From: Melioribacteraceae bacterium
Lineage (GTDB): Bacteria; Bacteroidota; Ignavibacteria; Ignavibacteriales; Melioribacteraceae
NCBI GenBank assembly: GCA_037481715.1
Contig: JBBFLD010000009.1
Span: 36,909 to 100,908 of the forward strand
DNA: 64,000 nt
Direction: 5' to 3'
A model generated the notes under the pieces. That model made no database searches. It worked only from the letters and a program-made list of their open reading frames with translations, and was not told the DNA's origin. Positions 9,891 through 39,418 of the stretch are shown here, piece after piece (positions within the stretch are counted from its first letter, which is position 1; each line of letters opens with the position of its first letter). Position numbers and translations under genes: made by a program.

Positions 9891-9892
9891 AA

Positions 9893-13314: not shown

Positions 13315-13319
13315 ATTTT

Positions 13320-17421: not shown

Positions 17422-17425
17422 GATG

Positions 17426-20400
17426 CTAAAAGACTTTTATTTTGAGATGATTATTAATCTTTGAAGATATTGTTGCTGAATCTACTGGTTTTGTAACTAA
17501 ATCATTAAAGCCATTTTTTTCAATTACTTCTTTGTTTTCGAGCATTGCATAAGCTGTAAGAGCAATTACAGGAATTTTGGCAGTTCTGCTGCTTGAACGA
17601 ATTCTTTTTATAGTTTCAAATCCATCCATTGTTGGCATCATTATATCAAGAAATATTAAATCCGGCAAAATATGATTTAGCATTAATAAACATTCCATCC
17701 CATTATGAGCATATACTGGACTGCAGTTTAATTCTTTCAAAAATTCTCCAATGGTAAATAATGTATCTTCGTCGTCATCGACAATCATAATTGTTGGTTT
17801 TAAATAATCATGAATTATTTCTGGTTTTCTGGGTGAAGATTCAATCATTAGATTAAGTCTTTTATTTGCTTCGCTGTCATCAATCTTCAATCTGTCTTTA
17901 ATGAATTTTAGAATATCAAGAGGATGATTTTTTTCTCTCAGTGTTATTGCATTGAAAGTGTTGGTTAAATCTGTTGATTCATTTTCTGAAAAAATTTGAG
18001 GGAGAAGAAAAACTACAAATGTGTTTTTTGTGAATTTATTCTGTCTTAATAATGAACTGAATAAAAGTGCATCTGATTTGAATGATTCAACATCAATTAA
18101 GAATAACTGCACTTTGCTGTAGTCAATTAATGCCATGGCAGATTCAAGCGAGTTTTTGTAATCAAATTCAATATCAGAAACATTGCTTTTAATAATTTCA
18201 TACTCTTCTTTTTTATAGCCGGCATAAATAATTTTTTCTACAGTTTCGTTTGTGAACGAATTAATCTGTTTAATTAAATTTTTGAAAATATTTTCTGTTA
18301 CGGGTTTAATTAAAAAATCAAATACATTGGGTGCCCAGCCAACTTTTTCATTTTCGATAACATTATAAATGATAATAGGCATTTCCAGTGCCGCAGGATT
18401 TTTTCTAATATCTGCAATTAACTGCCAAATGCTGCAATCATTCAAATGAGAATTTATAATTATCGAACTGAATTTTTGTTTATTAATAACATCAAGACTT
18501 TGTTTTGCGTTTTCGCAGATTTTAATTTGATAATTGTATGTTGCCAAATAATCTTTAACAAGTTTATTTGCATTTTCGCTGCTGCCAATTATTAAGGCAG
18601 AAGATTTTTTGTTCTCATCATAATCATCTTTTACTTTTAAGAAATTATCACCATTAGTTTCTATGATTTCTACTATTGCGTCATTTAACGTAAAAGAAAA
18701 TTTTGTTCCTTTGTTAATTTGACTTTCGAGTGATAATCTGCTTCCAAGCAATTCAGCATATCTTTTGCAGATTGCAAGTCCAAGACCAGCACCGCCAAAA
18801 TGTTTTGAACTGTTAGTTTCTATTTGTTTGAACTCTGAAAAAATTAATTCTTGTTTTTCTTCTGGAATACCAATCCCAGTATCCATGACCGAAAATTTAA
18901 TTGAATTGTTGTCAATCAATTCTATTAATAATTTTACTTCTCCTTTATCTGTGAATTTAATTGCATTCATCAAAAGATTTGAAAGTATGTGGTCTAATTT
19001 ATTTTTGTCTGTGTCTAAAAGAATATTTTTTCTTTTCGGTGTTTCAATGGTGAATTTCAATTTTTTTTCTTCTGCTGCACTTCCAAAATTTTGCCTTAAT
19101 TCTTCGAGCAATTCGCTCAACAAAAATTTTTCTTTTTTGATTTCGATTTTACCGGATTCAAGTCTTGAGAATTCAAGTATGTTAGTTATCAATCTCAATA
19201 ATTTTTTCCCGTTGCGATGGACAATGTTCAGTTTTTCATTAAACTTTGTATTAGCATAAGAATCTTTTAACAAAAGCTCGGTTAAACCAAGAATCGAAAT
19301 TAATGGTGTTCTCAATTCGTGCGACATGCTTGCGAGAAACTGCGATTTAACTTTTGTCAATTCAATCGCTTTTTGTTTTTGTTTTTCAAGTTCTTCAGCT
19401 TTTTCTCTAAGTTGATTATGAAGTTCTTTTAACTGCTCATTCTGCTGAGTTATTTGTTTATTCTGCTTTTGATATTCTTCATTTAATCTTTTTAGTTCTG
19501 TAATATAATTTTCAAGCTGCTCAAGCGAGACAGCATTAATCAAACCAATTGCCAGATGTTCCTGAATATTATCAAGATAGTTTTTTACTCCATTTTGTGG
19601 AATGTTTTCCGATGCAAGTTCGAGTATTGCAATTGGTTCTTTATTATATAAGATTGGATAAATTAATAAATATTTTAATTTGATTGATGCAAGACCAGTT
19701 TTAATTTCAGGGAAGTTGCTCTCAAAAGTAAATTCAAGGCTTTCCTTTTTATCTATTACATTTGAATACAAATCTGATGTGAAGTTTGTATTAACCGATT
19801 CTCGATTTATCCCATAAGACGAAGTCAATCTTAGATTTTTATTTTCCAGAACATAAAGCACTCCAAATGAACATCCAGTTGCTTTTATAATTTTTGAAAG
19901 AGCTGCTTCGGATACTTGCTTTAGTGTTGGATTTTGATTAATAAGCTTTATGAATTCAGTGTATTCTTTTTCAATATCTTCTTTCTTTTTAATTACATCG
20001 AGCATTTTATTAAATGCTTCGCCAAGCTTTCCAATTTCATCTTTTGAAATTATTGTAACACGATGTTCAAGATTTCCTTTAGTTGTAATTTCTGTAGCTT
20101 CGCTTAATAATGTAAGCTGTTTTCTAAATTTATAAGTAAATAAGAGAACAAAAATAAATGTGAGAGCACTTCCTGCAGCAACAATTAAAATAACCACATT
20201 TCTTAGTGTATTTCTGAAATCTGCTGCTTCTTCGAAAGATGTGAAGATTATAAAATTGAATTTGCCTGCTGGAGTTAAAATTTGTCTTGGTGTATAGAGC
20301 GAAGCTTTGAAATCGGCATTATCAACCTCATCATTAAATATATCGTAATTGTTTTTGAATTTTAAATTCTGAATGGAATGATTTAATGCAGGGATAAACT

Positions 20401-20938
20401 TTTGATTTTTATCTGGATGAGAAATTTCGTAGAGTTGATTATCAATAATTAATGCAATATCAGCTCTAATTTTTTCTGAAATTTTACTTAGAAAATCCGA
20501 ATCCAAAATTTTTCCGTAATAAATTATATTATTATTATCAATCCTTGTAAAGCTTAGGACAATATTAGGATTATCATCAAAAAATTTTTTGATTGACCTC
20601 GAAGCTAAGTTCAGTTTTGCATTTTTATTTTTTTTGAATTGATTGATATTAATTAAAGAATCTTTTTCTAAGGTAAAAAGAAAATCTATGCTGGTTGAAT
20701 CTAAGTTTATAGTGTTAAGATTTTTTGATGATGGAGAAATTTTTTTCAAATCATATTCGACTTGTTGAAGTGAAGTTTCGAAAACAAAAATAAAGTCGTT
20801 TGTTGAATTTAATATTGATTGTGATTGATATCTTGTAAGGAGACTGTCAGTAAGTGAGAAATAAATTACAGCAGAAGCTGCAGAAGTTATAACAACAATT
20901 ATAAATGAAAATAATATCAGTTTTGTATTCAGTTTCAT
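17426..20938 (-). CDS. Hybrid sensor histidine kinase (2 TM segments, extracytoplasmic domain, HAMP, GAF-like domain, coiled coil, HisKA, HATPase, three REC-like domains)
   Basis: H-box SHELRTPL. N/G boxes (LLMNAIKFT, DTGIGIP, GGAGLGLAICK). C-terminal canonical REC (IVDDDED, LIFLDIMMPTMDG). Two preceding REC-like segments, the first with Asn at the phospho-acceptor position (SSIIINSHL). Confidence 0.85.
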   Translation of the reverse strand: MKLNTKLILFSFIIVVITSAASAVIYFSLTDSLLTRYQSQSILNSTNDFIFVFETSLQQVEYDLKKISPSSKNLNTINLDSTSIDFLFTLEKDSLININQFKKNKNAKLNLASRSIKKFFDDNPNIVLSFTRIDNNNIIYYGKILDSDFLSKISEKIRADIALIIDNQLYEISHPDKNQKFIPALNHSIQNLKFKNNYDIFNDEVDNADFKASLYTPRQILTPAGKFNFIIFTSFEEAADFRNTLRNVVILIVAAGSALTFIFVLLFTYKFRKQLTLLSEATEITTKGNLEHRVTIISKDEIGKLGEAFNKMLDVIKKKEDIEKEYTEFIKLINQNPTLKQVSEAALSKIIKATGCSFGVLYVLENKNLRLTSSYGINRESVNTNFTSDLYSNVIDKKESLEFTFESNFPEIKTGLASIKLKYLLIYPILYNKEPIAILELASENIPQNGVKNYLDNIQEHLAIGLINAVSLEQLENYITELKRLNEEYQKQNKQITQQNEQLKELHNQLREKAEELEKQKQKAIELTKVKSQFLASMSHELRTPLISILGLTELLLKDSYANTKFNEKLNIVHRNGKKLLRLITNILEFSRLESGKIEIKKEKFLLSELLEELRQNFGSAAEEKKLKFTIETPKRKNILLDTDKNKLDHILSNLLMNAIKFTDKGEVKLLIELIDNNSIKFSVMDTGIGIPEEKQELIFSEFKQIETNSSKHFGGAGLGLAICKRYAELLGSRLSLESQINKGTKFSFTLNDAIVEIIETNGDNFLKVKDDYDENKKSSALIIGSSENANKLVKDYLATYNYQIKICENAKQSLDVINKQKFSSIIINSHLNDCSIWQLIADIRKNPAALEMPIIIYNVIENEKVGWAPNVFDFLIKPVTENIFKNLIKQINSFTNETVEKIIYAGYKKEEYEIIKSNVSDIEFDYKNSLESAMALIDYSKVQLFLIDVESFKSDALLFSSLLRQNKFTKNTFVVFLLPQIFSENESTDLTNTFNAITLREKNHPLDILKFIKDRLKIDDSEANKRLNLMIESSPRKPEIIHDYLKPTIMIVDDDEDTLFTIGEFLKELNCSPVYAHNGMECLLMLNHILPDLIFLDIMMPTMDGFETIKRIRSSSRTAKIPVIALTAYAMLENKEVIEKNGFNDLVTKPVDSATISSKINNHLKIKVF

Positions 20939-20999: not shown

Positions 21000-22244
21000 T
21001 TACTTTTCGTCTTCTTTTTTAATTTCACTTTCCTTTTTGTATTTATCCATTGATTCGATATTTTTCTTAAGTTCTTGTTTTAATATGCCTTCTTCTTTCA
21101 TTGTAGATATTCTTTCTTTAAGCGGCGGAAGAATTTCTGCTTTTATCAAGATAATGATTTCTTTTGTTGTTACCGTTTTTTGGTCATAACCAAAAAGATA
21201 TCTTAAACCTAAAAACCACCATGGCAAATCTTTTAAGATTGGAACACCTCGTCTGTCCATGGTTTCCTCATTAACGAATAATCCGCCAATTGCAGTTTCT
21301 TCGCCATCGAGCAGCAATACATTTGTTTCTGCAGCAGTTTTTCTGATTTCTGTTGTTATGGTTCCTGGATTTGCAGAACTTCTTTCAACTTTCAATTTCA
21401 TGTAGACATAATCAATTCCATCTTCATTGTAAATGTAAGGCGTAACTTCAATGATTGTTCCTGTTGAATAAAATCTGTCAATTAAATTGCCAGCAAAATC
21501 TCTCTCTTTTATTGAAATATCTGAGCCAACTTGAGTTCTGCCTTTAACCCCGTTTACTGTGCTGATTGTGGGTCTTGAAATAATTTTGCCCAGATTTTCT
21601 GTTTCAAAAAATCTAAACAGTGAAGTAGCATCACCTTCAAATTTTCCCATTGTGAATTTTGATTCTGTATTAACACTGAATTCCGGAGGCTTTTGTTGAA
21701 TTTGAGTTGTAGTTCCGCTTTGTTGTTGTATTTGTTCCTGCACAGTAATAAGTTTTCCGCCGATTGATAATCCACTTCTTGAGAGTAAAAATTCCCAGTT
21801 TATTCCGCGTTCTCTCATTTCAGCAACATTAGCTTCAAACAATAATGCTGATATTCTAACTTCTCTTTCATCAACAGAGGCATAAACATCTTTTGCAAGT
21901 TGAGCTTTGGCTTCTTCTTTTTTCTTAACAATTATTGTGGATTCAGTTTCTTCCAAAGTTAAATTATTATACTGAACAATTATGAAGAGAGCTTTTTTAT
22001 ATTGAATTTTGTTTAATTCAACTCCGATTGGTGAAGTTATATTTACAGTTGATACAATTTTTTTACCTGTGATTTTCTGACTTACTGCACTAAGCACTTC
22101 AATTGCTTGATTAAATGGAATGTTTTCAGAAAGAGTAACAAGTTCTTCGGGATTAACATATCCCTTAAGTTTTTCCTGCAAATCAATTTGAGCATCAACT
22201 CTGCTCATTAGAATTATTAGCAAAAGAAAAATTAGCTTTTTCAT
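21000..22244 (-). CDS. Secretin-family outer-membrane channel (compact, PilQ/GspD-like)
   Basis: Signal peptide, an N0-like domain, and a C-terminal secretin signature (GLFVNEE..RRGVPILKDLPWWFLGLRYLFG). Last gene of the pilus block. Confidence 0.75.
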   Translation of the reverse strand: MKKLIFLLLIILMSRVDAQIDLQEKLKGYVNPEELVTLSENIPFNQAIEVLSAVSQKITGKKIVSTVNITSPIGVELNKIQYKKALFIIVQYNNLTLEETESTIIVKKKEEAKAQLAKDVYASVDEREVRISALLFEANVAEMRERGINWEFLLSRSGLSIGGKLITVQEQIQQQSGTTTQIQQKPPEFSVNTESKFTMGKFEGDATSLFRFFETENLGKIISRPTISTVNGVKGRTQVGSDISIKERDFAGNLIDRFYSTGTIIEVTPYIYNEDGIDYVYMKLKVERSSANPGTITTEIRKTAAETNVLLLDGEETAIGGLFVNEETMDRRGVPILKDLPWWFLGLRYLFGYDQKTVTTKEIIILIKAEILPPLKERISTMKEEGILKQELKKNIESMDKYKKESEIKKEDEK

Positions 22245-22245
22245 T

Positions 22246-23133
22246 TTATTTACTCTTCTTAATTTCTTTGTCGAGTTTTAGTGTTACAGTTTCAATTATT
22301 CCACCTTTGTTCAGAACAAAACGTACTTCATTTTTATCGTAATTAATATTTGTCAAATAACCAAGATATACTTTATCGCCTTCCCAGAGCAGGAATGTAT
22401 TTCCATTTGCATCGGCTAAAAATGCACCATCAGGAATTAATGCAAGCAGTTTTGCATTTTGAACATCAAGCAATCCTTCTTTGTTTGGAGGTATTTCATT
22501 TCGAATCAATGGATAGAAAATATCATAAACAGGATTTGGTTCTAATCTGTTTTCTACAAAATTTTTAACATAAAATCTATCGTCGTTTGAAAAGTAAACT
22601 GCGACTTTGAATTTGAATGTAACCAGATAGTGCGGCATCCCATCTTCATCAACTTTAACATTGTTAGTCATTTCAACATTAGAAATTTTCTTAAGCATTT
22701 TGCTTTCTTCAATAGCATAAATCAGATGATTCAAATCATTAAATTCAGCTGTTCCACTTAATGTATAACGATAAATGCTTAATGGATTTCCTTGTTCGGT
22801 TTGGTCGAATTCTATATTGACATAAGAATATGGTGAAAATGAGTAAGTAACTTGATTAATAAAATCATAAAAACTCGATTGAGAAAGATTGTATGGAACA
22901 TTGTATTGTCGATTGGCAAGAATTGAATCAAGCTGAGCAACTCGTTTTCTCAAAAAATTTAATTGTTGTGTTAATGCTTCGGTATCGAGCTGATAAAGTG
23001 TTAATTCTTTTATCTTTTTTTCACGGTCTTTAATTTTTCCTTTCAAGTAAACATAATTGAATAGCCCGCCAATTAGAATAATGGCAACAAGTATCGCAGA
23101 AATGATGACGGTATTTTTTACTTTGCTGTTCAT
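22246..23133 (-). CDS. Putative pilus alignment protein (PilO-like N-terminus, PilP-like C-terminal beta domain)
   Basis: A single N-terminal TM helix plus a coiled coil, as in PilO. The C-terminal beta-rich segment (GDKVYLGYLTNINYDKNEVRFVLNKGGIIETVTLKL) resembles the PilP/GspC HR domain. Synteny between the PilM/N-like gene and the secretin. This is a topology and context call only. Confidence 0.45.
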   Translation of the reverse strand: MNSKVKNTVIISAILVAIILIGGLFNYVYLKGKIKDREKKIKELTLYQLDTEALTQQLNFLRKRVAQLDSILANRQYNVPYNLSQSSFYDFINQVTYSFSPYSYVNIEFDQTEQGNPLSIYRYTLSGTAEFNDLNHLIYAIEESKMLKKISNVEMTNNVKVDEDGMPHYLVTFKFKVAVYFSNDDRFYVKNFVENRLEPNPVYDIFYPLIRNEIPPNKEGLLDVQNAKLLALIPDGAFLADANGNTFLLWEGDKVYLGYLTNINYDKNEVRFVLNKGGIIETVTLKLDKEIKKSK

Positions 23134-24686
23134 TTTGTTTTCAAAGTATCTGCCTGCAATTTGAAATTAATTATATAAGAGAAAGCACTTTTTTCTCTTA
23201 TGGATTCATAATTGATATTTTTGATAACAGCAGAAGGCATGCTTTCTGCAAATTCTGTAAGCACACCTCTCGATAAAGAATATCCGCTGATTCTAATTTC
23301 TGAAGGCGAAACAGTTTCTAATCTGCTTAACCAGAAATTTCTTCTTCTTTCAATAAAATCTGAAATCTTTGTGATATTTTTATTCCAGATTCCTGCACCA
23401 GCAGATGCAGAATCAAGAATTGCTTGAGTAGCATCAAAGTTATTAATTCTGTTATCAAGAGGAGTAATTTCCTGCACAAGTGCCTGATTCTGAATTTGTC
23501 TTTGAGTCAATCTTTCTATTTCTAAATCAAGTTCTTTTATTTGTTCATAACTTGATAAAATTTTGAATGTAAAGAAAAATGTGGCGCCAAATAATAAAGG
23601 AAGCATTGCATAGCTGTGCCATCCAAATTGCAAAAATTTCTGATTCTCTTGAATATATCTTGGAAGGAAGTTTATGCCAGTGTAAATTTTATCGAGCTCA
23701 TCAAAATATTCAACTCCAACAGAAATCGGAATTGCATAGAGAGCAAGATTTTTAATTTCATCTTCGGTTAATGATGATGTATCCAAGTTTTCAAATTTTA
23801 ATTCGAAGACATTTGCTTCTGGAAAAGTTCCATAGAAAGAAAGGATTAAATTTTCTGAACGGTCTTCTCCACAAAGAATTATATTGTCTAACTTTGGAAT
23901 TCCTCCATTTTCCATTTCAAGAAGAATTTTAGAAAAGTAAACATCATAAGTATGAAGATTTTTAGTTCCAATATCTAAAGTTGCACCGATGTGTTTTAAT
24001 TTTTGTCCTTCTAAAAAAATCAGCTTGCTGTATTCTTTTCCAATATGAATGATTAATGTGTAATCTTCCGGGAAAAATTTATGAGATTTACCAACAAAAT
24101 AAGCTAAAGATAATTCTGCAGGTTTGATTGTAGGAATTTTGTAATAACGCTTTTTATTATAACTTGCAAGTTGATTAACAATAGTAGCACCAGCAATTTC
24201 TCCTTCAATAAATACACTCAGCATTGCTTTTTCACTAAACTCTATTACATCAATCATATCGGGAGGAACTATAATTCCTTTTGTGTTTTCAATATCTGCA
24301 ATTATTGATTGAAGTAACTTTTTTCTGTTCTCTTCTCTTGGACCTTCATAAAAATGGTAGCTAACAATAGGTTCACTTACAATTGGAATAAAATGAAGTG
24401 ATTTTAAATTTAATCCTGATAACGCAGCTTGTATCTGTCCAATATCTGAAGTATCAACTGACTCTTCTTTTCCCAAATCAATTTTATCAATACTATCAAA
24501 AGAAATTTCACTTGAGGAATCGATAGACTCAAGTTCTGTTAGTGATTCCTGTCTTGAGGAACTTTGTAAAGCTGTCGACATTGTAATTGAAGCAACACGA
24601 TTTACCGATACAGTCTCGTTGTTTTTTGACATGACTGCAAGTTTTACATCATTGCCTTCATTATATATGCAGACTATTTGTTTCAT
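23130..24686 (-). CDS. Putative PilM-like (actin-like ATPase fold) / PilN-like fusion protein
   Basis: About 350 aa of cytoplasmic region with PilM-like segments (LIIHIGKEYSKLIF, LDIGTKNLH). Then one TM helix (AMLPLLFGATFFFTFKIL), a coiled coil and a periplasmic region as in PilN. Start and stop are coupled to the neighbouring genes. Confidence 0.55.
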   Translation of the reverse strand: MKQIVCIYNEGNDVKLAVMSKNNETVSVNRVASITMSTALQSSSRQESLTELESIDSSSEISFDSIDKIDLGKEESVDTSDIGQIQAALSGLNLKSLHFIPIVSEPIVSYHFYEGPREENRKKLLQSIIADIENTKGIIVPPDMIDVIEFSEKAMLSVFIEGEIAGATIVNQLASYNKKRYYKIPTIKPAELSLAYFVGKSHKFFPEDYTLIIHIGKEYSKLIFLEGQKLKHIGATLDIGTKNLHTYDVYFSKILLEMENGGIPKLDNIILCGEDRSENLILSFYGTFPEANVFELKFENLDTSSLTEDEIKNLALYAIPISVGVEYFDELDKIYTGINFLPRYIQENQKFLQFGWHSYAMLPLLFGATFFFTFKILSSYEQIKELDLEIERLTQRQIQNQALVQEITPLDNRINNFDATQAILDSASAGAGIWNKNITKISDFIERRRNFWLSRLETVSPSEIRISGYSLSRGVLTEFAESMPSAVIKNINYESIREKSAFSYIINFKLQADTLKTK

Positions 24687-24687
24687 A

Positions 24688-25914
24688 TTACACAGCTTTT
24701 AATAGTTGCATAATACGGGTTTTATTATTTGCATAAGCAATAGCATTTTCCTTTGATATTTTCTTTTCAGTATAAAGGCGCAACAAATCCTGTTCCATTG
24801 TAATCATACCTTGCGGACCGCCTTGATTAATCATCATATAAATTTCGCTTGTATTATTGTTTTTTATTGCTGCTCTAACACTTGGAGTTACTATTAGAAC
24901 TTCTTTTGCAAGAACCCGCTTGCCATCGAGGCTGGGGACTAATTTTTGAGATACTACAGAAATTAAAACATCAGCTAATCGGTTTCTTACTCTTTCCTGT
25001 TCTATTGGATGAACTTCTGCAATAATGCGGTCAATAGATTCAACTGCAGATGAAGTATGCAATGTAGAAAATACCTTATGACCTGTATCTGTTACCTCTA
25101 AAGCTGCCATTATTGTGTCGGGGTCTCTCATTTCTCCAATTACAATTATATCGGGGTCCTGTCTTAGTGATTGAATTACTCCATCTTTGAAAGATAAAAC
25201 ATCTCTTCCAACTTCTCTATGTTTTATTATAGAAACTTTAGATGTATGAACATATTCAACTGGAGAAGCAATTATAACAATATGACATGGGTCGAATTGA
25301 TTATGATAATCAATGATTGCATCGAGAGTAGTTGATTTACCTGAACCTGTAATTCCAGTTACAAGTGATAAACCAAATTTTATATAGTTATGGCTCATTG
25401 TTTTAATTGCCAGGGGATGAAATTCAAGTGATTCAAGAGGACGAATTTTTGCCTGTATAGCTCTCATGTTTAGAGCTAATGTGTCAAGGTCGAAATATGC
25501 ATCAGCACGGAATCGAACATTTGTATTTTGTTTTGGATAGAAAAATGAATAGCTGAAATCCAGATTTCTTTGTTCAAGCAAAAAATTTCTTTGGTTTTTA
25601 TTAAGAAGAGAAATTATCAATACAGCAGCTTCATCAGTATTCATTGTGGGCAAATCTTTAACCCGTTCCTTTTTTCCATAAATTCGAAACCAGACATAAC
25701 CTTGTGTTCCAAATCCGCCAATCTCAACATCAGATGCCTGTCGTTCAATCATTAAGCTCAAAATGTGATTTGCAAATTGTATTATTAAAAGTTTTTCGTT
25801 GTCGGTAAGCTGGTCAATATTATCTGCAATATATTTTACTCGTTCTGGGCCAAAAACAGTTTGAGGAATTTTATTTGCAAAATTAGTTAGTATTTGTTTT
25901 GCTTCTTCTATCAT
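24688..25914 (-). CDS. pilT: PilT-family type IV pilus retraction ATPase
   Basis: Walker A GITGSGKSTT, Asp box DPDIIVIGEMRD, His box GHKVFSTLHTSSA, and a degenerate AIRN-like motif (AIKNNNTSEI). Has an N-terminal extension of about 60 aa. Confidence 0.85.
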   Translation of the reverse strand: MIEEAKQILTNFANKIPQTVFGPERVKYIADNIDQLTDNEKLLIIQFANHILSLMIERQASDVEIGGFGTQGYVWFRIYGKKERVKDLPTMNTDEAAVLIISLLNKNQRNFLLEQRNLDFSYSFFYPKQNTNVRFRADAYFDLDTLALNMRAIQAKIRPLESLEFHPLAIKTMSHNYIKFGLSLVTGITGSGKSTTLDAIIDYHNQFDPCHIVIIASPVEYVHTSKVSIIKHREVGRDVLSFKDGVIQSLRQDPDIIVIGEMRDPDTIMAALEVTDTGHKVFSTLHTSSAVESIDRIIAEVHPIEQERVRNRLADVLISVVSQKLVPSLDGKRVLAKEVLIVTPSVRAAIKNNNTSEIYMMINQGGPQGMITMEQDLLRLYTEKKISKENAIAYANNKTRIMQLLKAV

Positions 25915-26082: not shown

Positions 26083-27867
26083 TTAATCTTCCATTGTGGC
26101 AGCAATTACTTCTTGAATTGAGGTTAATCCCATTTTTACTTTTTCGAATCCCGATTCTCTTAAGCTGATGGTTCCATCTTTTCTTGCCTGTTCACGAATT
26201 GCTTCTTCATCTACTTCATTACCTGAACGAACAATTATTCTTCTTATTTCTTTTGTGAAATATAGAGCCTCGTGTATAGCCATTCTTCCTTTGTAACCGG
26301 TGTTATTGCATTTATCGCATCCAACAGCTTCATAAATATCGTAACCAAGCCAATCTTCTAATTTGAGTCCAGCAGGTAAAATATGTTCTTCCAGATTTGT
26401 AACTTTTCTTTTGCAATGTTCGCATAATTTTCGAATTAATCTTTGAGCTACAATAATGTTTATTGCATAAGCAATCAGGAATGGTTCAATACCCATTTTG
26501 AATAAACGAGCTACAGCACTTGGTGCATCATTTGTGTGAAGAGTTGAAAAAGTTAAGTGACCTGTATTTGCAAGTTTAATTGCAGTTTCAGCAGTTTCTT
26601 TATCGCGCATTTCGCCAACAAGAACTATGTCAGGGTCGTGACGCAAGATTGCTCTTATCGCCTGTTCGAAGTTCATTTTATGTCCAATCTTAAGCTGACG
26701 TGCTCCTTCAATTACATATTCAACCGGGTCTTCAATTGTTAAAACATTTTTGGTTGGATGGATAACTTGATACAAAGCAGCAATTAAAGTAGTTGATTTT
26801 CCACTTCCTGTTGGTCCTGTTAAAATTATCATTCCCTGCGGTTGATTGATTGCTTTTACAAAAGCTTGATGAGCATAACCTGTAAGCCCAAGTTTGTTCA
26901 AATCTTTTATTACTTTTCTGTCATCAAGAACTCTTATAACAATGCTTTCAAATTTATTTTTTAATTCTGTTCCAACCATTGGCAGTACTGAAACTCTAAA
27001 GCGAATTATATGACCATCAATTTCTCTTTGAATAAAACCGTCCTGAGCTTTTTCTCTTTCAAATCTATCCAGACCTTTTGAGCGGTCTTTGACAACTGCC
27101 ATAACAGCTTCAGGCATTGTATTTTCCTGAACATGCCATAATTGCAGTTTACCATCTATTCGAAAGTGAATCTCAGTTTTCATTGCTCCTTTTGGAATTA
27201 TATGAATATCACTTACACTTTTACGCACTGCTTCTACGAGAGCAGCTTCAATCAAGTTAATTAAAGCACTTTTGTTTATTTCAGCATCTAATTCTTCTTC
27301 GTCAATTGTTTCTTCTTGAACAACATGAAGTTCTTCACCGGCTTCTTCAATCATTTTTAGATAAACATTCTCGGAAGAAACTATCATGTTTATAAGTTTA
27401 TCATAATCTTTTTTTCGCAGATAGTTTATTTCATATTTTTTTGCATTTAATGCATATGCTACTTTTGCAATTGCTCTGTCTGTTGGGTCAACAGCAGCAA
27501 GTATTAATTTATCTTTTACTTTATCATCATACTTAAATGGAATGATGCGATGCTCAAGAAGCATTTGTTTAACTTCTTGAGGCTGACGATTAATTAAATT
27601 TTTTATTTCGTTGATTCTTTCTTCTGGCAGTTCTTCTGGACGAATATTAAGTTCTTTGAATGCATAGAGAATTGCAACTTCGCGGAATATAACATCGTGT
27701 TCAAAACCAAATTCTTCAACAAGTATTTGAGCAAGATTTCGCTTTTTATTTGTCTGGTCTGCTTCTTTTACTTTTAAAGCCTGTTCTAAAATTTTTGAAT
27801 CAATTATTCCTTTTTTTAATAATAGGTAGCCGATTTTATCCGCCATTTCTAATTGTGTATCCAGCAT
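26083..27867 (-). CDS. pilB: Type IV pilus assembly ATPase PilB/GspE family
   Basis: N-terminal T2SSE_N/MshEN-like domain. Walker A GPTGSGKSTT, Asp box DPDIVLVGEMRD, His box GHLTFSTLHTNDA, and a tetracysteine motif (CEHC...CDKC). Confidence 0.9.
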   Translation of the reverse strand: MLDTQLEMADKIGYLLLKKGIIDSKILEQALKVKEADQTNKKRNLAQILVEEFGFEHDVIFREVAILYAFKELNIRPEELPEERINEIKNLINRQPQEVKQMLLEHRIIPFKYDDKVKDKLILAAVDPTDRAIAKVAYALNAKKYEINYLRKKDYDKLINMIVSSENVYLKMIEEAGEELHVVQEETIDEEELDAEINKSALINLIEAALVEAVRKSVSDIHIIPKGAMKTEIHFRIDGKLQLWHVQENTMPEAVMAVVKDRSKGLDRFEREKAQDGFIQREIDGHIIRFRVSVLPMVGTELKNKFESIVIRVLDDRKVIKDLNKLGLTGYAHQAFVKAINQPQGMIILTGPTGSGKSTTLIAALYQVIHPTKNVLTIEDPVEYVIEGARQLKIGHKMNFEQAIRAILRHDPDIVLVGEMRDKETAETAIKLANTGHLTFSTLHTNDAPSAVARLFKMGIEPFLIAYAINIIVAQRLIRKLCEHCKRKVTNLEEHILPAGLKLEDWLGYDIYEAVGCDKCNNTGYKGRMAIHEALYFTKEIRRIIVRSGNEVDEEAIREQARKDGTISLRESGFEKVKMGLTSIQEVIAATMED

Positions 27868-27938: not shown

Positions 27939-29282
27939 TCATTGTGCTAATGGTGATTTTGGACTTATTGTTGCTGTTTCTGCTGAAATTAAAGTTAATG
28001 CAATCATAACAATCATAATAATCATAGCTATTGCAAGCTGTATCATTTCAATCACATTTTTTAATCTAAATACAGTTTCGCTTTCATAATAATTTGCAAG
28101 TTGAAGAGCAGTATTTTTAATTGTTCCTGTTTCTTCGCCAGAGTGAAATCTTGATAAAGCTGTATCTGTAAATACGCCGCTTGCCTGGAAAGCATCTGTA
28201 ATTCCTATTCCTTTTTTAATCATTAATGGAATAGCCACATTTTTGATTTGATTTTCAAAATAACTATTGCCAGTTGCTTCGGCTGCAATTCTAATGGGTT
28301 CAATACTTTCGGCAGACCCTGTGTAGAGTGTATAAAATACACGGCAAAAAACTTCTATATTTGTTTTGTGAATAAGATTTCCAATTATTGGAATTTTATA
28401 CATCAGTCTGTCAATTATTAGTTTTCCTTTTTTGGTTTTAGCAAATTGAATTATAAATATTGGAGGAATTATAATAGCTAATGATACCCAGAGAATATTT
28501 CCCATTAAGAAATCACTAATTTTTAATGTGGCGGCAGTCAGTGGTGGTAAATCAATTTTAAATTTGATAAACAATTTAGCTGTTTCTGGAAAGATATAGC
28601 CGACATAAAATATTACAGCAAGAAACAATACGAACAAAGTAACTAATGGTGTAATCAAAGCACTTCTTAAGTTCTTTCTAAATTCCTGCTGACGCTCGAG
28701 AAATTTTGCTGTTGCTTTGTAGATTTCTGCCATGTTACCACTTTTAGATGCAAGGCCAAGCATATATGCAGTAAATTTTCCAAATACAGATTGATATCGA
28801 AGAAATGTAGCTTCGCTGTCAGCTCCTTTTTTAAGTTCATTATTAATTTGTCTTAAAGTTTCGCGCAAAGTTTTATTTTGAATATCATTTATAAGCAATG
28901 TAAGTATTTCGCTATAAGGAAGTTTTTGCTCAAGCAGTTCGGCACTAATTTTTACATAAGAAACGATATCCTGCTGCGGCGGTTTGAAGTTGAACTCAAA
29001 ATATTTTTTATTGACAGAAATAACTTCGTAACCAAGTTTTCGAAGAGCATTTACAACTTCTTCTTTGCTGAAAGCTCGCTGTTCGCCGATGATTGGTTTT
29101 TCATTGCCGCGTCGTATTTTATAAATATATGTGCTTTTTTTTTGGATTGAATGGATTTTGAGATTATTTTTTTGAGCTAATTTGTAAATCTTCTTTTTAG
29201 CTTCGCTGAAAGTAGGTTCATTAAGTGTTCCAGTGATTGTTTGTCCACCTGGTTTAATAGCGTTAAATCTTACTTCAATCAT
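27939..29282 (-). CDS. pilC: Type IV pilus platform protein PilC/GspF family
   Basis: 447 aa. Duplicated GspF-type cytoplasmic domains separated by TM helices. Adjacent to pilB. Confidence 0.85.
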   Translation of the reverse strand: MIEVRFNAIKPGGQTITGTLNEPTFSEAKKKIYKLAQKNNLKIHSIQKKSTYIYKIRRGNEKPIIGEQRAFSKEEVVNALRKLGYEVISVNKKYFEFNFKPPQQDIVSYVKISAELLEQKLPYSEILTLLINDIQNKTLRETLRQINNELKKGADSEATFLRYQSVFGKFTAYMLGLASKSGNMAEIYKATAKFLERQQEFRKNLRSALITPLVTLFVLFLAVIFYVGYIFPETAKLFIKFKIDLPPLTAATLKISDFLMGNILWVSLAIIIPPIFIIQFAKTKKGKLIIDRLMYKIPIIGNLIHKTNIEVFCRVFYTLYTGSAESIEPIRIAAEATGNSYFENQIKNVAIPLMIKKGIGITDAFQASGVFTDTALSRFHSGEETGTIKNTALQLANYYESETVFRLKNVIEMIQLAIAMIIMIVMIALTLISAETATISPKSPLAQ

Positions 29283-29547: not shown

Positions 29548-29587
29548 TAAAATAAAAAGGCTGGCAAAACTATGTTTTACCAGCCTT
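29548..29587 (-). terminator. Rho-independent terminator after pilin-like gene 1
   Basis: A 14-bp stem (29557-29570 / 29574-29587). It is perfect only on the minus-strand RNA (one U-G wobble there, a C-A mismatch on the plus strand). 3-nt loop, followed by UUUUAUUUU. Confidence 0.7.
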
Positions 29588-29625: not shown

Positions 29626-30033
29626 CTATTCACCACCACTGCCAGATACAGGCGTTATGGTAAAATCATTAGGCCCAACGACACATTGTAACTTGATTAT
29701 ATTTCCAGCATCATCTTTTTCTGTACCGGTAGCTATTATTGTTGCATTTTCGTCTGTAGTAGTAACAGCAATATCTTCACTCATATTAGCAGTTCTTTTT
29801 AAGCTTGCTGGGATAGTATTCTCCCAACCAGTAAATTTATTACCTCCACCTCCCAATGCAGTTGGTTTACGGTAATATTGTTGTGCCATTGCTGCTAAAT
29901 TTGTTAAATCTGCTGTTAGAGCATCTCTGTTTGCTTGATAGCTGCTTGCAGTAAATACATTAATACCTACTACTACAGCGATACCGACGATTATAACGCC
30001 GAGAACGATAAGTAATAATTGTTGTTGACCCAT
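29626..30033 (-). CDS. Pilin-like protein, non-canonical N-terminus (paralog 1)
   Basis: Starts MGQQQLLLIVLGVIIVGIAVVVGINVF. Continues with an amphipathic helix (DLTNLAAMAQQYY) and a Gly-rich/beta C-terminal half. Strong SD (AAGGAG). An in-frame stop lies 5 codons upstream of the ATG. Sits immediately upstream of pilC-pilB-pilT. Confidence 0.6.
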   Translation of the reverse strand: MGQQQLLLIVLGVIIVGIAVVVGINVFTASSYQANRDALTADLTNLAAMAQQYYRKPTALGGGGNKFTGWENTIPASLKRTANMSEDIAVTTTDENATIIATGTEKDDAGNIIKLQCVVGPNDFTITPVSGSGGE

Positions 30034-30187
30034 AGGTAACTCCTTTTAATTTGTGAGTAAATATGTTAATTAAAAAACAGTGAAACTGTATTTGTTAAAG
30101 CCATTTATCAATTTATATACCATCTAAAAATTTTTTTTAAAAGTAGTTTTATACTAATAAAACCTGCATTTAAATCATAAAAAGAAC

Positions 30188-30571
30188 TTAATTAATAATT
30201 TCTACTCTATAAATAGTTGGTTTAACAACTATTTTCACTCTTATTGAGTCATCATTTGTCACAATTTCATTACCAACTCCCATAATTATTAGGCTATCAT
30301 CACTCACATTTTCGCGTCTATAACTGCCTGTAGCTGTTACTTTTAATTCGGGCGGAACATCCCAACCAATAAATGACCTTCCGCCTCCGCCAAGTGATTT
30401 TGGGCTTAAATAATATTTTTGTGCCATCGCTGCTAAGTTTACAAGTTCATTTGTCACAATATTTCTTTTAGATTCAATTGCATTTGCCCTGAATAAATTA
30501 ATTCCCATAAATATTGCAATGCCCACAATAACAATTCCAAGTAATATTAATAATAATTGTTGCTGTCCCAC
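30188..30571 (-). CDS. Pilin-like protein, non-canonical N-terminus (paralog 2)
   Basis: GTG start. Starts MGQQQLLLILLGIVIVGIAIFMGINLF. Shares LVNLAAMAQKYY..P..LGGGG..F.GW with paralog 1. An in-frame stop lies 7 codons upstream. Confidence 0.6.
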   Translation of the reverse strand: MGQQQLLLILLGIVIVGIAIFMGINLFRANAIESKRNIVTNELVNLAAMAQKYYLSPKSLGGGGRSFIGWDVPPELKVTATGSYRRENVSDDSLIIMGVGNEIVTNDDSIRVKIVVKPTIYRVEIIN

Positions 30572-30818: not shown

Positions 30819-31196
30819 TCAAAAATCTCGTTCTAATTTTAGAGCACTTTCAATAATTTTTTGTAATTCTTCGGGCGTAAAAGGTTTTTGAAGTATTATA
30901 AAATCATTTTCCTGAATTTCTTTTAATGTAGCATCATCAGAAAATGCTGTAATAAAAATTGATGGGATAGAAAATTTGTTTTTTAATTCTCGTGCCGTTT
31001 CAAGTCCGTTCAGTTTGCCCTTTAGTTTTAAATCCATAAGTACTAAATCCGGTTTGGTTTCTTCAGCGAGTGCTAAAGCTTTTTCACCCGTAGATGCAGT
31101 TCCAACTACTTCATAATTTAATGATGTTAATCTGTATTGAATTTCTAATGCAACAATTGCTTCGTCTTCAACAATAAGAATTTTTGTTTTATGCAT
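30819..31196 (-). CDS. Single-domain response regulator (CheY-like receiver)
   Basis: 125 aa. Motifs EDE, LVLMDLKL and KP. No output domain. Separated by 3 nt from the upstream kinase gene. Confidence 0.85.
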   Translation of the reverse strand: MHKTKILIVEDEAIVALEIQYRLTSLNYEVVGTASTGEKALALAEETKPDLVLMDLKLKGKLNGLETARELKNKFSIPSIFITAFSDDATLKEIQENDFIILQKPFTPEELQKIIESALKLERDF

Positions 31197-31199
31197 TTT

Positions 31200-34100
31200 T
31201 TATTTTAAGTCCTCTATTACAATCTTAAATTCAGTTCCTTTTTCTGATTTAATTTCAATATTTCCATTAAGCTGATTTACAATTGAATTTATTAACTTCA
31301 TTCCCAAAGAATCTGATTTTTCGATTTCGAAATCTTTCGGCAAGCCAACTCCATTATCTCTTATAATCATTAAGTATTTATTAGAATCAATCTTGTTGAC
31401 TTTTATTTCTACTTTTAATTCATCATTATCTTTAACGAATGAATCGGGGAAAGCATATTTAAATGAATTTGTTACAACTTCGTTTACAATCAATCCGCAA
31501 GATAAAGCAGTATCAAGACTTAAGTTAATATCTTTTGCTTCTATGACTGTAATAATGTTTTTATCTTTTCTTACAAAAGATTTTTTTAATTCGTCAACAA
31601 GACTTTTTATATAATCTTCAAAACTAATCATCGATAAATTTTCTGAGCGGTATAATTTTTCATGAATTAAAGCCATACATTTAATTCTGTCGCGGCTCTC
31701 CTTGAAAGCATTTATTACATTTTCATCCTTCAAATTAATTGATTGAAGAAATAACAAGCTTGAAACCACCTGCAGATTATTTTTGACACGATGATGAATT
31801 TCTTTGAGTAATATTTCTTTTTCCTGAAGTGAAATTTTTAGTTTTTCTTCGGCTTTAATTCTTTCTTCGATTTCATTACTTAATTTTTTTATTGTCTCGT
31901 CAAGATCTTTTGTTCGTTCTAAAATTTTCTCTTCAAGAATTTTATTTTGTTTACGAACATTTCTTGTTCTAAAGTTTATATAAAGAGCTACCATCAAGAT
32001 TAAAGCAGCTGCAGACAAAAATTTAAATAATGCTGTTTGATAAAAAGCAGGTAAAATTATAATGTTTAATGTTGCCTGTCTTGCATCTCGAATGCCATCA
32101 ATATTATATGCTTTTACAATGAACTTGTATTCTCCCGGAGGTAAATTTGTGTATGTAGCAGAATTTCTGTTTCCAACATCGTTCCAGTTCATATCAAATC
32201 CTTCGAGCTTGTATGAATATCTGTTCTTTTTTACATTGTAAAAATCCAGAAGTGCAAATTCAATAGTAATAACATCATTGCCAGGAGGAATGGTTATACT
32301 TTTTGCTTCAGTTATTGATTCTTTAAGAATTGAATTGTTTTTTCCAATCGGAACAGATTCATTATATATTTTCAAATCAGTAAAAACTATTGGTGCATTA
32401 AGATATTGTTCTTTAATACTGTCAGGATTGAAATATAATAAGCCACCTCCGCAAGAAAAATAAAGATATCCATTTTTAGATTTAGCAGTTAAATTTTGAG
32501 AAAACTCTTGAGCTGGTAATCCATTTCTTTTTGTGTAGTTATAAAAAGTATTAGTTTTTCTATCAAATTTTGCTAAACCTTTATCGGAAGTAATCCAAAT
32601 GTTTCCATTGTTGTCTTCGATTATTCCATTTATAATATTTCCCGGTAATCCATCTTTAGTTTTATAAATTTTTGTTTTGTTGGTTTTATAGTCGTAATAG
32701 CTTAATCCATCGCTCGTTCCGAACCAGATAATTCCATCGCTGGATTCAAAGATTGCAAATACTCTATTCTCACTAATTCTTAATGATGCTAAAGATGATT
32801 TTGTAAAGTTTATAAATTTATTTGTCTTGGGATTGAGCATGCCGGCACCACCTCCATCAGTTCCAACCCATATCATTCCTCGTGAATCTTCAAAAACAAC
32901 CCACACTAAATCGTAAGGTAAACTATTTGGATTATTATTATCATGAAGATATCTGTAAAATTTTTCTGTTTTCTTATTATACTTATTTAATCCCCACCAT
33001 GTAGAAAACCATAAATTGCCATGTCTATCTTCGCAAATAGAAGTAATTCCGTTATTACTTATTGATGTATTGTCGTTAATATCATAAGTGAATAATTTGA
33101 ATTTTTTAGTTTTGGGGTCGTATCTATTTAATCCACTATGATTTGTGCCAATCCAGATATATCCGTCACTATCTTCATAAACAGACATTATAAAATTATC
33201 ACTAATACTATTAGAATTGTTTGGGTTATTTTGGAAATGAGTTATGCCCGATTTTTCTAATTTGTATAAACCATCAAGAGAACCAAGCCAGATATCATTA
33301 TTTTTGTTTATAAAAATAGATGTTAATCTATTGCTGATGTTATTGCTTATAAAATGAAAATTATTTTTTGGAAAAAAGGTTTTGCTTACACCTCCTCCAG
33401 TTCCTATCCATATAATTCCTGTATTATCTTGAGTTAAAGAAAGTATGTTATTGTCAATTATTGAATAAGTTTTATTGGGGTCATGTAAAATTCTAACAAA
33501 GTTGTCGCTTAGAGGTAAATATTTATTTAATCCATTCTTCGTACCTATCCATATATTATTTTCTCTGTCTTTGAAAATTGTATTTACATGGTCATCAGTA
33601 AGTGTTGATGAATTATTTTTAATGGACTTATAAAATTTTATTTTTTCATTCAGTAAATTATATTTTGCAATACCTTTGTTGGATAAGCCAATCCATAGGT
33701 TGTTTGAATTATCAATGAGTAATGAAGAAACTATTCTGTAATCAAAATATTTGTAATCCGGTGGTTGAGCAAATATTTGTTTGATTACTTTTCCATCCTT
33801 TGTCATGCAGGTTAATCCATTCCATGTTCCAAGCCATAAATTACCTTTACTATCTTCCTCAATACAAACAACACTGTTTAATGAATCGGGGTTAAGTCTG
33901 TCACTTACTTTTTTGATAACAGTAAAATTATCTTTTTCTTTATTGTATTTATTTAATCCATTAAGTGTCCCAACCCATAATGTGCCTTCTCTATCGATAA
34001 AGAGTGTGATTACATTATTATTGCTTATACTGTTTGGATCATCAGGATTATTTTTGTATACAATAAATTCTTCGGTTTTTCTTTTATATTTGTTCAAACC

Positions 34101-34606: not shown

Positions 34607-34626
34607 TAAATTTATAGACTTTGTTA

Positions 34627-37705: not shown

Positions 37706-37725
37706 AACCAAATAAAAGGTGAATT

Positions 37726-38187
37726 ATGAGCAGAAAGCTTGAAGATATTCAAAAACGCCATGCATTGATTAAATCCTTGATTTCTTCACAGAATATTTAT
37801 AATCAAACTCAGCTTGTAAAAATTTTGAAACAGAAAGGAATCAAAGTTACACAAGCAACATTATCGCGGGATTTAACTGATCTTGGTGTTGTAAGAGTTC
37901 CTACTTCAGAAGGTCTTGTTTATAAACTTGGCACTGAAGGCGGTGATGGAGCTCTTAAATCCAGAATAGCAGAAGAAATAATTTCAATTGAATCTAATGA
38001 ATGCATTGTTCTTATAAAGACATTTTTAGGAAGGGCTCAGGGTGTTGCAGTATATATTGATAAACAAAATGAACCAGAAATTCTTGGCACAATTGCAGGT
38101 GATGATACTATCATAGTTGTTCCTAAAACAATTAAAAACATTAAAAAAGTAATTGAACAATTAAAAATAATATTAGGGATTAAGTAA
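37726..38187 (+). CDS. argR: Arginine repressor
   Basis: 153 aa. N-terminal winged helix (TQATLSRDL) and a C-terminal oligomerisation/Arg-binding motif (GTIAGDDTI). Confidence 0.85.
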
Positions 38188-38188
38188 T

Positions 38189-39415: not shown

Positions 39416-39418
39416 TTC

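Follow-up and report, generated by a model that had tools for sequence, protein, structure and literature searches.

The window analysed here, a 64,000-nucleotide (64-kb) stretch of Melioribacteraceae DNA, carries two tandem genes whose products probably (roughly 60% by our estimate) represent a leaderless, Glu5-less class of type IV pilin-like filament subunits, translated in 'mature' form and assembled without a prepilin peptidase. A filament subunit needing neither PilD processing nor Glu5 had been put forward in the original prediction, which was made from the DNA alone. That proposal is supported: the in silico predictions came out as expected, and from them we infer the filament. A class III signal peptide, together with the peptidase that cleaves it, is considered core to all type 4 filaments (Pelicic 2023, PMC10191384). 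This leader is hydrophilic, usually basic and ends in Gly or Ala, after which the prepilin peptidase cuts; in the mature type IV pilin, Glu5 is frequent but not universal (PMC10191384).

The tandem genes and the adjacent pilus machine

The type 2 gene (30188..30571 (-)) encodes 127 aa from a GTG start and begins (M)GQQQLLLILLG..., and the type 1 gene (29626..30033 (-)) encodes 135 aa from an ATG start and begins MGQQQLLLIVLGVIIVGIAVVVGINVFTASS...; the N-termini obtained by ORF translation are (M)GQQQLLLILLGIVIVGIAIFMGINLF and MGQQQLLLIVLGVIIVGIAVVVGINVF, respectively. The two proteins are paralogues, both beginning M-G-Q-Q-Q. Upstream in frame, a stop is the 7th codon before the 127-aa ORF (*SKFGKI-V) and the 5th codon before the 135-aa ORF (*KELP-M), and no alternative ATG, GTG or TTG lies between stop and start in either gene. 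The Shine-Dalgarno (SD) sequence AAGGAG 5' of the type 1 gene was read directly at 30040..30045 (-). The stops, both start codons and the SD motif had all been reported before and were re-read in the sequence. The earliest acidic residues are E33 in the 127-aa protein and D37 in the 135-aa protein, in agreement with the earlier statement that the first 30 residues contain none. A strong terminator had also been described behind the first gene. An intrinsic terminator-like hairpin with a 14-bp stem and 6 GC pairs, followed by a T-run, does occupy the gap between the type 1 gene and pilC (29557..29587 (-)), but the gene in front of it is the second in transcription order.

On the minus strand, the 127-aa gene is followed by the 135-aa gene, the terminator, pilC-pilB-pilT, genes for two conserved bitopic proteins and the pilQ secretin gene. 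ORFs, translations and Pfam/NCBIfam scans of the downstream genes confirmed that the paralogues stand in tandem 5' of pilC-pilB-pilT. The PilC/GspF-type platform protein (27939..29282 (-), 447 aa) matches Pfam T2SSF (E 2.9e-27), with NCBIfam GspF/PilC matches that fall below the equivalog cut-offs. The PilB/GspE-type extension ATPase (26083..27867 (-), 594 aa; Pfam T2SSE, E 2e-105) scores 424 bits against the PilB model TIGR02538 versus 396 bits against GspE. The third protein is a PilT/PilU-family retraction ATPase (24688..25914 (-), 408 aa; TIGR01420, 328 bits, above the cut-off of 319.1). Then come a conserved 518-aa protein with one transmembrane segment (TM) in the pilM/pilN position (23130..24686 (-)) and a conserved 295-aa bitopic protein in the pilO position (22246..23133 (-)), both tentatively named and both syntenic in 54 of 79 loci. 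The 518-aa protein has no Pfam or PDB match and a faint PilM-like match to Amuc_1101 (E 0.032), and its Kryptonium orthologue has a sub-threshold PilN match (E 0.0023); because the PDB search was empty, 'PilM/N' is a positional name only. No family match was found for the 295-aa protein, whose Kryptonium orthologue is faintly PilO-like (E 0.13). A PilQ-type secretin (21000..22244 (-), 414 aa; Pfam Secretin, E 6.8e-26), with PilQ as its best NCBIfam model, completes the set. Directly 3' of pilQ lies a hybrid histidine kinase (17426..20938 (-), 1170 aa) with HAMP, HisKA, HATPase_c and receiver domains, possibly a regulator of the locus; in Melioribacter roseus an equivalent 1151-aa gene comes after the secretin gene. 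Judged by these matches, the machinery is that of a type IVa pilus (T4aP), with PilB, PilC, PilT and a secretin present and PilM/N/O equivalents that are tentative and sub-threshold.

The same arrangement recurs in the genome of the cultivable M. roseus P3M-2 (CP003557.1), where the subunit candidate is MROS_0599, and far beyond; other complete genomes with the locus are OZ245062.1, OY759785.1, CP070637.1 and OY969800.1. The gene order is one to three MGQQQ genes, then pilC, pilB, pilT, the 518-aa gene, the 295-aa gene and pilQ, and the segment from pilC through the 295-aa gene is present in 54 of 79 loci spanning several phyla. Linkage of homologues to pilB and pilC, on which the original prediction had staked itself, held: pilC is immediately downstream of the MGQQQ genes in 63/79 loci and pilB is adjacent in 57/79. 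Truncation of the contig, or a second, orphan copy, accounts for most loci without an adjacent pilC, and orphan copies away from pil genes occur, for example, at L012, L050, L052, L061 and L088.

A leaderless start throughout a large family

We found the MGQQQ family to comprise 5508 clusters at 90% identity and 2163 representatives at 50%, with at least 510 loci in species-representative genomes. Its members come from Ignavibacteriota, Kryptoniota, Calditrichota, KSB1 and one Rhodothermaceae MAG. At least 2163 clusters at 50% identity carry the label 'hypothetical', and some members have already been labelled PilE or PulG by JGI. In the open-access literature we found no prior description of the MGQQQ motif, of leaderless pilins or of pilD in Ignavibacteria.

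The homologues anticipated by the original prediction exist in thousands of proteins, among them 141 genes in 79 independent loci, and universally start M/V/L-GQQQ. Across the 79 loci, 144 of 145 GQQQ sites stand directly on a start codon (ATG, GTG or TTG). The upstream in-frame stops of the 141 genes are mostly 0-8 codons off, an alternative in-frame upstream start is available in only 5/141, none of them conserved, and no conserved sequence precedes the M/V/L-GQQQ start among the homologues of the 79 loci. In a scan of 1.84 billion proteins, the top 150 matches nearly all align from residue 1. Database entries with basic N-terminal extensions were considered as possible leaders (P0188, P0206 and P0258); the extension of P0206 was rejected as a gene-call artefact because a GGAGG SD directly precedes the internal ATG. 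The start without a leader is not a chance feature: thousands of proteins, and 141 genes from 79 independent loci, share both this start and the architecture.

Gly2 is invariant in 141/141 genes, and no member (0/141) has an acidic residue before position 25; the position aligned to Glu5 is Leu8. Of the class III signal peptide only the Gly is kept, and the basic residue is absent; the first ~25-35 residues are uncharged throughout. Neither window protein matches N_methyl (PF07963) or TIGR02532 in Pfam and NCBIfam scans. The first 31 aa of type 1 proteins are identical in 34 genomes whose nucleotide identity falls to 71%, and the C-terminal half is hypervariable, unlike the invariant N-terminus. 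Such N-terminal identity despite abundant synonymous change, joined to a variable C-terminal half, reads at the sequence level as the signature of a filament core.

The peptidase itself was sought by several routes. Motif scans, the A24 HMM run on all ORFs and Pfam on the polytopic ORFs revealed no prepilin peptidase in the 64-kb window, as had been claimed; its two polytopic ORFs are UbiA and a spermidine-synthase-like protein by Pfam. Over the window and ±10 kb of the 79 loci, the A24 HMM matched positive controls only, and E. coli GspO and two plasmid-borne peptidases used as queries (tblastn, phmmer and HMM) gave no match in loci or window. Likewise, motif scans found no GFxxxE-type pilin in the window, and no GFxxxE protein lies within ±10 kb in any of the 79 loci. 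The annotation-based complete-genome paper on Melioribacter roseus (2013) had already stated 'pilA and pilD not found'.

These searches bear on another reading, in which the proteins are genuine prepilins with a two-residue Met-Gly leader, cut after Gly2 by a peptidase encoded elsewhere to leave Gln at +1, possibly methylated or cyclised, in an otherwise canonical T4aP. The invariant Gly2 of the 141 genes resembles the Gly(-1) of prepilins, and the absence of a peptidase covers the window and ±10 kb of the loci only. MSH pili loci have no prepilin peptidase of their own and borrow one from another system (Denise 2019, PMC6668835), and some Ignavibacteriales MAGs have canonical Geobacter-like pilins and presumably, then, a peptidase too. 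However, a single residue before the Gly, with no basic residue, makes a leader far shorter than those reviewed (PMC10191384), pilD was not found in the complete-genome analysis of M. roseus, and our profile alignments (below) make Gln4, not Gln3, the first mature residue. The requirement for Met removal explains an invariant Gly2 equally well. We regard a minimal leader as unlikely. The comparison with MSH pili also has its limits: those loci are T4aP-derived and lack a peptidase gene like the present ones, but their pilins have normal leaders and the peptidase is always elsewhere in the genome, whereas here there is nothing to cleave.

The two subunit types differ in their expression signals. 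In 50/79 loci type 1 is preceded by a type 2 orthologue, whose start is GTG or TTG in 29 of these 50 cases. The type 1 start is ATG in 88/90 genes, and 84/91 have an SD-like motif. A hairpin with a T-run separates the last MGQQQ gene from pilC in 35/63 loci and tandem MGQQQ genes from each other in 2/60. Its ATG, strong SD and terminator make type 1 the candidate for an abundant major subunit, and the frequent GTG/TTG starts make type 2 a candidate low-abundance minor or priming subunit. Apart from the type 2 gene, the window encodes no minor pilin and no PilY1-like initiation protein, consistent with the earlier remark that it lacks minor-pilin genes.

Predicted structure and likeness to pilins

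We utilized AlphaFold2 (AF2) to predict the structure of the type 1 protein. The model (pLDDT 79.6) consists of a 53-residue helix (residues 3-55), a GGGG loop and four β-strands (89-92, 97-106, 112-119 and 124-129), and the head alone reached a pLDDT of 85.8. Residues L6-F27 are hydrophobic and modelled as helix, as in an α1N of 20-25 residues, and align to the α1N of pilins in a constant register with scores above shuffled controls. The layout recalls the pilin 'lollipop' fold, in which an α1 of ~50 residues carries a globular head with an antiparallel β-sheet as its scaffold (PMC10191384). The alpha-beta layout that the original prediction had proposed to look for is present in the model, as a long N-terminal helix and a four-stranded sheet. 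A significant structural match to pilins is not: with Foldseek, the full model had no match at E<=0.001 (best PAK pilin 1oqw, TMq 0.48, E 0.9), and neither did the N-terminally truncated head model. Because Foldseek gave nothing significant, we do not regard a pilin fold as demonstrated.

In profile comparisons the helix aligns to canonical pilins far above shuffled controls; the Pfam/NCBIfam pilin models remain unmatched. Using hhalign, we aligned helix α1, and only this helix, to the short PilA family (probability 75%, score 32.6) and to mixed pilins and pseudopilins (probability 30%, score 26.4), moderate values that appear only with deeper or closer profiles; a single E. coli GspG or a 4-sequence GspG profile gave ~6%. 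The reversed and 30 column-shuffled controls reached at most 17.2. The register is constant, with query position equal to mature pilin position + 3, so that G17, N25 and F27 pair with G14, P22 and F24. For both proteins, Pfam/NCBIfam scans returned noise only (MacB_PCD, E 0.0034; TadE-like, E 0.37). The top non-antibody sequence match in the PDB profile search was geopilin, sub-threshold at E 0.23; the antibody light-chain matches that dominated this search were spurious, arising via 'QQYYRxPxxFGGG'.

By profile, the closest known relatives are the type IVa major pilins PilA/PilE, specifically the short Geobacter PilA-N type. Like them, the family has ~130 aa, a hydrophobic α1N running into an amphipathic α1C over ~53 residues, helix-breaking Gly/Asn at the Gly14/Pro22 positions and Phe at the Phe24 position, a predicted four-stranded β head, an N-terminus that does not vary and a C-terminus that does, and a gene that adjoins pilB/pilC/pilT/pilQ with a terminator behind it. 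Unlike them, it has Met-Gly as its only leader, Gln3-5 instead of Phe/Met at +1 and Glu5, no N_methyl match, no disulphide (Cys is absent from 108/141 members), no significant Foldseek match for the head and no peptidase nearby. Archaeal type IV pilins and archaellins commonly lack Glu5, and their +1 residue is often small or polar, including Gln. Their class III leader is nevertheless cleaved by PibD/FlaK, and the archaeal-type machines have no PilT or secretin. The tip minor (pseudo)pilins GspK and PilX offer a pilin-fold precedent without Glu5 (E. coli GspK reads MNNEQRGVALLIVL), but they sit at the tip in single copy and have a normal leader that is cleaved off, whereas here a putative major subunit lacks Glu5.

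GspG, the major pseudopilin of the type II secretion system (T2SS), shares the α1C pattern A..D...L..A...Y, which aligns, and differs in its basic leader, Gly-Phe, Glu5, Ca-binding head and lack of a PilT partner. The window proteins have no match to PF08334, the T2SSG head, and PilT is in the operon. Instead of a surface pilus, the subunits might still assemble into a short pseudopilus in the periplasm, as part of a T2SS-like system (cf. the clustering of Bacteroidetes 'T2SS' with T4aP). The adjacent PilB and PilC score almost equally against GspE/GspF models, M. roseus secretes many glycoside hydrolases according to its genome paper, and the Bacteroidetes secretion system derived from T4aP has a very divergent major pilin (Denise 2019, PMC6668835). 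Nonetheless, a bona fide PilT-family retraction ATPase sits inside the operon in 54/79 loci, the best secretin model is PilQ, and the hypervariable C-terminal half suggests surface exposure, which together make a pseudopilus highly improbable.

The head domain is also found following Sec or lipoprotein signals, and following the third TM of Zn-ribbon/DUF4190 anchors; in Sec-secreted proteins and in lipoproteins it comes in tandem arrays of 2-5 repeats. Because it appears in these non-filament architectures, it is not pilin-specific. Its presence behind secretion signals and TM anchors, together with the charge of the type 1 flank after the TM (net -1.1), points to an extracytoplasmic head; no positive charge N-terminal to the TM enforces N-in. 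An autonomous head module of this kind, found on polytopic Zn-ribbon anchors and as repeats, could mean that the proteins are anchored in the inner membrane and never polymerise, serving as accessory or alignment parts of the machine or as binding/adhesin modules, with the true subunit elsewhere or absent. The lack of a pilin match for the head in Foldseek and the orphan copies away from pil genes fit such a role. Yet a simple anchor would not stay identical across genera over 31 positions under heavy synonymous turnover, and α1 aligns with pilins in a consistent register at scores that the controls do not reach. With their tandem paralogues, strong SD and terminator, the genes look like those of major pilins, no other candidate subunit lies within ±10 kb of the machines in 79 genomes, and the machine already has conserved bitopic proteins of its own. 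We consider this reading doubtful, if somewhat less so than a minimal leader.

Proposed assembly and its meaning

If the proteins are leaderless filament subunits, the Gln3-Gln5 polar cap and the 22-residue hydrophobic helix with Gly12, Gly17 and Gly23 would place them in the inner membrane, N-in/C-out, and the α/β head of ~100 residues would stay outside the cytoplasm. From the synteny, the PilC platform and PilB ATPase would extract the subunits and stack their helices into a filament core, which would leave via the PilQ secretin and be retracted by PilT. The peptidase step would be absent since there is nothing to remove, with methionine aminopeptidase taking Met1 at most. The uncharged Gln cluster may stand in for the salt bridge between Glu5 and the N-terminal amine. 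On their expression signals, type 1 would be the abundant major and type 2 the low-abundance minor or priming subunit. With subunits supplied ready-made with an N-terminal Gln cluster, the PilB/C/T/Q machine could therefore polymerise and retract them unprocessed.

We give an even chance to the broader proposal that a whole bacterial filament lineage (Ignavibacteriota, Kryptoniota, Calditrichota, KSB1 and relatives) has lost the leader/peptidase step and the Glu5 bridge, both regarded as close to universal across the superfamily. If true, cleavage would not be mechanistically required for extraction and polymerisation, and the family would provide a natural experiment on the roles of Glu5 and the N-terminal amine. 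Pilin finders that use the class III signal motif or IPR012902-type signatures, such as PilFind and InterPro (PMC10191384), would prove to have a blind spot. The family would also fill the 'missing pilA/pilD' gap in Melioribacter, and probably that of many MAGs of the FCB group that are now credited with incomplete pili. Overall, these results suggest that the large, unnamed MGQQQ family builds a pilus that needs no prepilin peptidase.

Start of the family genes and the missing leader

The two pilin-like genes of the window are arranged in tandem on the reverse strand. The upstream type 2 gene (30571-30188, (-)) encodes 127 aa from a GTG start, and the type 1 gene (30033-29626, (-)) encodes 135 aa from an ATG preceded by the Shine-Dalgarno sequence AAGGAG (30045-30040, (-)) and is followed by a hairpin with a 14-bp stem and a T-run (29587-29557, (-)). 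Both proteins start with M-G-Q-Q-Q and 22 hydrophobic residues, with E33 and D37 as their earliest acidic residues. The in-frame codons upstream of the starts read stop-SKFGKI (127-aa gene) and stop-KELP (135-aa gene), with no alternative start codon in between for either gene. The original prediction was thus accurate as to sizes, start codons, AAGGAG and the M-G-Q-Q-Q start, a leader of at most Met-Gly, the lack of acidic residues in the initial 30 and the terminator behind the 135-aa gene.

We then considered the best 79 family loci (±10 kb) of at least 510 in species-representative genomes. All 141 family genes in them begin with ATG, GTG or TTG followed by GQQQ, and the start codon stands directly before GQQQ and the hydrophobic run in 144 of 145 occurrences. 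An in-frame stop usually lies 0-8 codons upstream; an alternative start further upstream is present in only five genes and is not conserved among them. Thirty-four genomes share the initial 31 residues, MGQQQLLLIVLGVIIVGIAVVVGINVFTASS, without any change. The DNA that encodes this stretch is as little as 71% identical, and almost all of its codons show synonymous variants, indicating that each residue is under strong purifying selection. One database protein, P0206, has a basic 15-residue extension, which we rejected as a leader: a GGAGG Shine-Dalgarno directly precedes its internal ATG, making the extension a gene-call artefact.

No canonical class III signal peptide was found in the 79 loci ±10 kb. 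An A24 peptidase was likewise not found there, using a three-sequence HMM that recovered the positive controls alone (in phmmer searches the three controls detected each other with E 1e-8 to 1e-13). Within the 64-kb window, neither a GFxxxE-type pilin nor a prepilin peptidase was found, the latter as predicted; of its ORFs, just two are polytopic, one for a UbiA prenyltransferase and one for a spermidine-synthase-like product. A 779-aa protein encoded at 57644-59983 (+) is predicted to have ~14 TM segments, and a spermidine-synthase domain is weakly recognised in it. Reviews hold the class III leader and its peptidase to be universal (Pelicic 2023, PMC10191384), and MSH loci lack a peptidase, yet their genomes possess one (Denise et al. 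2019, PMC6668835). We consider it improbable that the family carries a minimal M-G leader cleaved by a peptidase encoded elsewhere.

Linkage to the pilus machinery

In the window (31% GC), the pilin-like genes are followed on the same (-) strand by genes for PilC (T2SSF), PilB (T2SSE; TIGR02538, 424 bits), a PilT-family ATPase (TIGR01420, 328 bits, exceeding the 319.1 cut-off), a 518-aa protein (23130-24686, (-)) and a 295-aa protein (22246-23133, (-)), both without family assignment, and a PilQ-type secretin. A T2SS-like pseudopilus is, beside this PilT- and PilQ-containing set, very improbable. Directly 3' of pilQ lie a hybrid histidine kinase and a response regulator (16735-20938, (-)). In the kinase (1170 aa), two receiver regions accompany HAMP, HisKA and HATPase; the C-terminus of the regulator is HisKA-like. 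The two may serve to regulate this pilus locus specifically. The same locus is found in Melioribacter roseus P3M-2 (CP003557.1), where it encodes proteins of 127 aa and 128 aa (MROS_0599), T2SSF, T2SSE, T2SSE, 517 aa and 295 aa, a secretin and, again after the secretin, a hybrid kinase.

Linkage of homologues to pilB/pilC, on which the original prediction had hinged, was borne out: pilC is immediately 3' on the same strand in 63 of the 79 loci. The run pilC-pilB-pilT-518aa-295aa is present in 54, and in 46 the secretin, too, falls inside the retrieved flank. Where pil genes are missing, the locus in most cases lies at the end of a contig or is a second, orphan copy from a genome with a linked one. 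Orphan copies away from any pil genes occur at L012, L050, L052, L061 and L088; L012 shares a Stygiobacter MAG with L002, as orphan copies sometimes do with a linked one. The 518-aa and 295-aa proteins had no Pfam, NCBIfam or PDB match; faint signals to Amuc_1101 (PilM-like), and to PilN and PilO in Kryptonium orthologues, were the only ones seen, and the two proteins are probably the PilM/N/O counterpart of this lineage.

Two orthologous types, type 2 upstream and type 1 adjoining pilC, recur in 50 loci. Type 1 starts with ATG in 88/90 genes and has an SD-like motif in 84/91, and type 2 starts with GTG or TTG in 29/50. Between the last MGQQQ gene and pilC, 35/63 loci have a terminator-like hairpin, against only 2/60 junctions of tandem MGQQQ genes. 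A major subunit made in abundance, accompanied by a minor one, is expected to give this pattern.

Other features around these loci were also recorded. In Ca. Kryptonium thompsonii (L057:13711-16333), and with the same layout in L055, three additional genes lie between pilB and pilT; such genes are absent from the window. Their products open directly with a hydrophobic helix (MTTGQTLITILALALL..., MMSSLLDYIMATIIGG..., MFGKTSLLILIGFISIF...) and are possible tip proteins or leaderless minor pilins; one of them, of 451 aa, has a sub-threshold DUF4900 match. Directly 5' of the window's pilin-like genes lies a pair of genes (30819-34418, (-)), one for a sensor kinase with a Reg_prop/Y_Y_Y β-propeller and HisKA_2, the other for a single-domain response regulator; the other 79 loci do not conserve this pair here. 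Ordinary housekeeping clusters flank the pilus locus at 8547-16731 (+) and 34621-40786 (+); judged from translations alone, one is apparently menaquinone-type, including a UbiA-family prenyltransferase, and the other resembles an arginine-biosynthesis operon.

Pilin likeness and the head domain

AlphaFold2 predicted a helix spanning residues 3-55, then a GGGG loop followed by four β-strands (pLDDT 79.6 for the full model; 85.8 with pTM 0.72 for the head alone), a predicted layout like the lollipop described for pilins (Pelicic 2023, PMC10191384). Neither model had a Foldseek match in the PDB at E<=0.001; PAK pilin 1oqw (TMq 0.48, E 0.9) alone aligned over the full length, and the family may have a new pilin head. 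The best non-antibody PDB sequence match was geopilin (E 0.23). In profile-profile comparison, a family profile from 32 diverse members matched the short PilA family with 75% probability (score 32.6) and 120 mixed pilins and pseudopilins with 30% (26.4), against 3% (20.4) for the GspM control and <=2% (<=17.2) for reversed and 30 column-shuffled family profiles.

Family positions equal mature pilin positions + 3 throughout (G17~Gly14, N25~Pro22, F27~Phe24, Leu8~Glu5, Gln4~residue 1), which places the family protein start within ~3 residues of the processed pilin start. Canonical type IV pilins have a class III leader and Glu5, whereas the family has neither and shares α1N. We class it as pilin-like, a variant outside the canonical membership.

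The head (from ~residue 30; ~95 residues) is uncatalogued. In other proteins it follows a Sec or lipoprotein signal in 2-5 tandem copies (P0123, P0163, P0160, P0125, P0124) or the third TM of a Zn-ribbon/DUF4190 polytopic anchor (P0138, P0263). These architectures indicate an autonomous module located outside the cytoplasm. P0236, from the 1.84-billion scan, is a further protein with this head, and a near-threshold PA-IIL fucose-lectin match in P0123 (E 0.001) hints at glycan binding. Type 1 proteins have no charged residues before ~position 36 and a net charge of -1.1 in the flank after the TM, compatible with a putative N-in/C-out orientation. That the family consists of anchored, non-polymerising proteins is unlikely, though somewhat less so than the M-G leader.

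Family extent and proposed assembly

A search with the 135-aa protein at E<=1e-3 found 5508 relatives (clustered at 90% identity), chiefly from Melioribacteraceae and Ignavibacteria, none with a Pfam domain. NCBI names them 'hypothetical', and the JGI pipeline calls several 'PilE' or 'PulG'. A HMMER scan of 1.84 billion representatives returned 2163 clusters when grouped at 50% identity, 1388 of them with E<=1e-10, and the match begins at residue 1 in nearly all of the best 150. Members are 108-157 aa long, with a C-terminal half varying in sequence and length; the best 79 of at least 510 loci come from Ignavibacteriota, Kryptoniota, Calditrichota, KSB1 and one Rhodothermaceae MAG.

We favor a leaderless, Glu5-less pilin variant assembled without prepilin peptidase. 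The subunit would insert with a Gln cap at the cytoplasmic face and be extracted and polymerised by PilB and PilC with no peptidase step. In the filament core, a Gln3-5 hydrogen-bonding cluster and an uncharged N-terminus would take the place of the Glu5/N-terminal-amine pair. The fibre would be conducted by PilQ and retracted by PilT, and type 2 may prime assembly. We found no description of the GQQQ motif or of leaderless pilins in the open-access literature, and a leaderless pilin-like family would matter greatly to research on type IV filaments.
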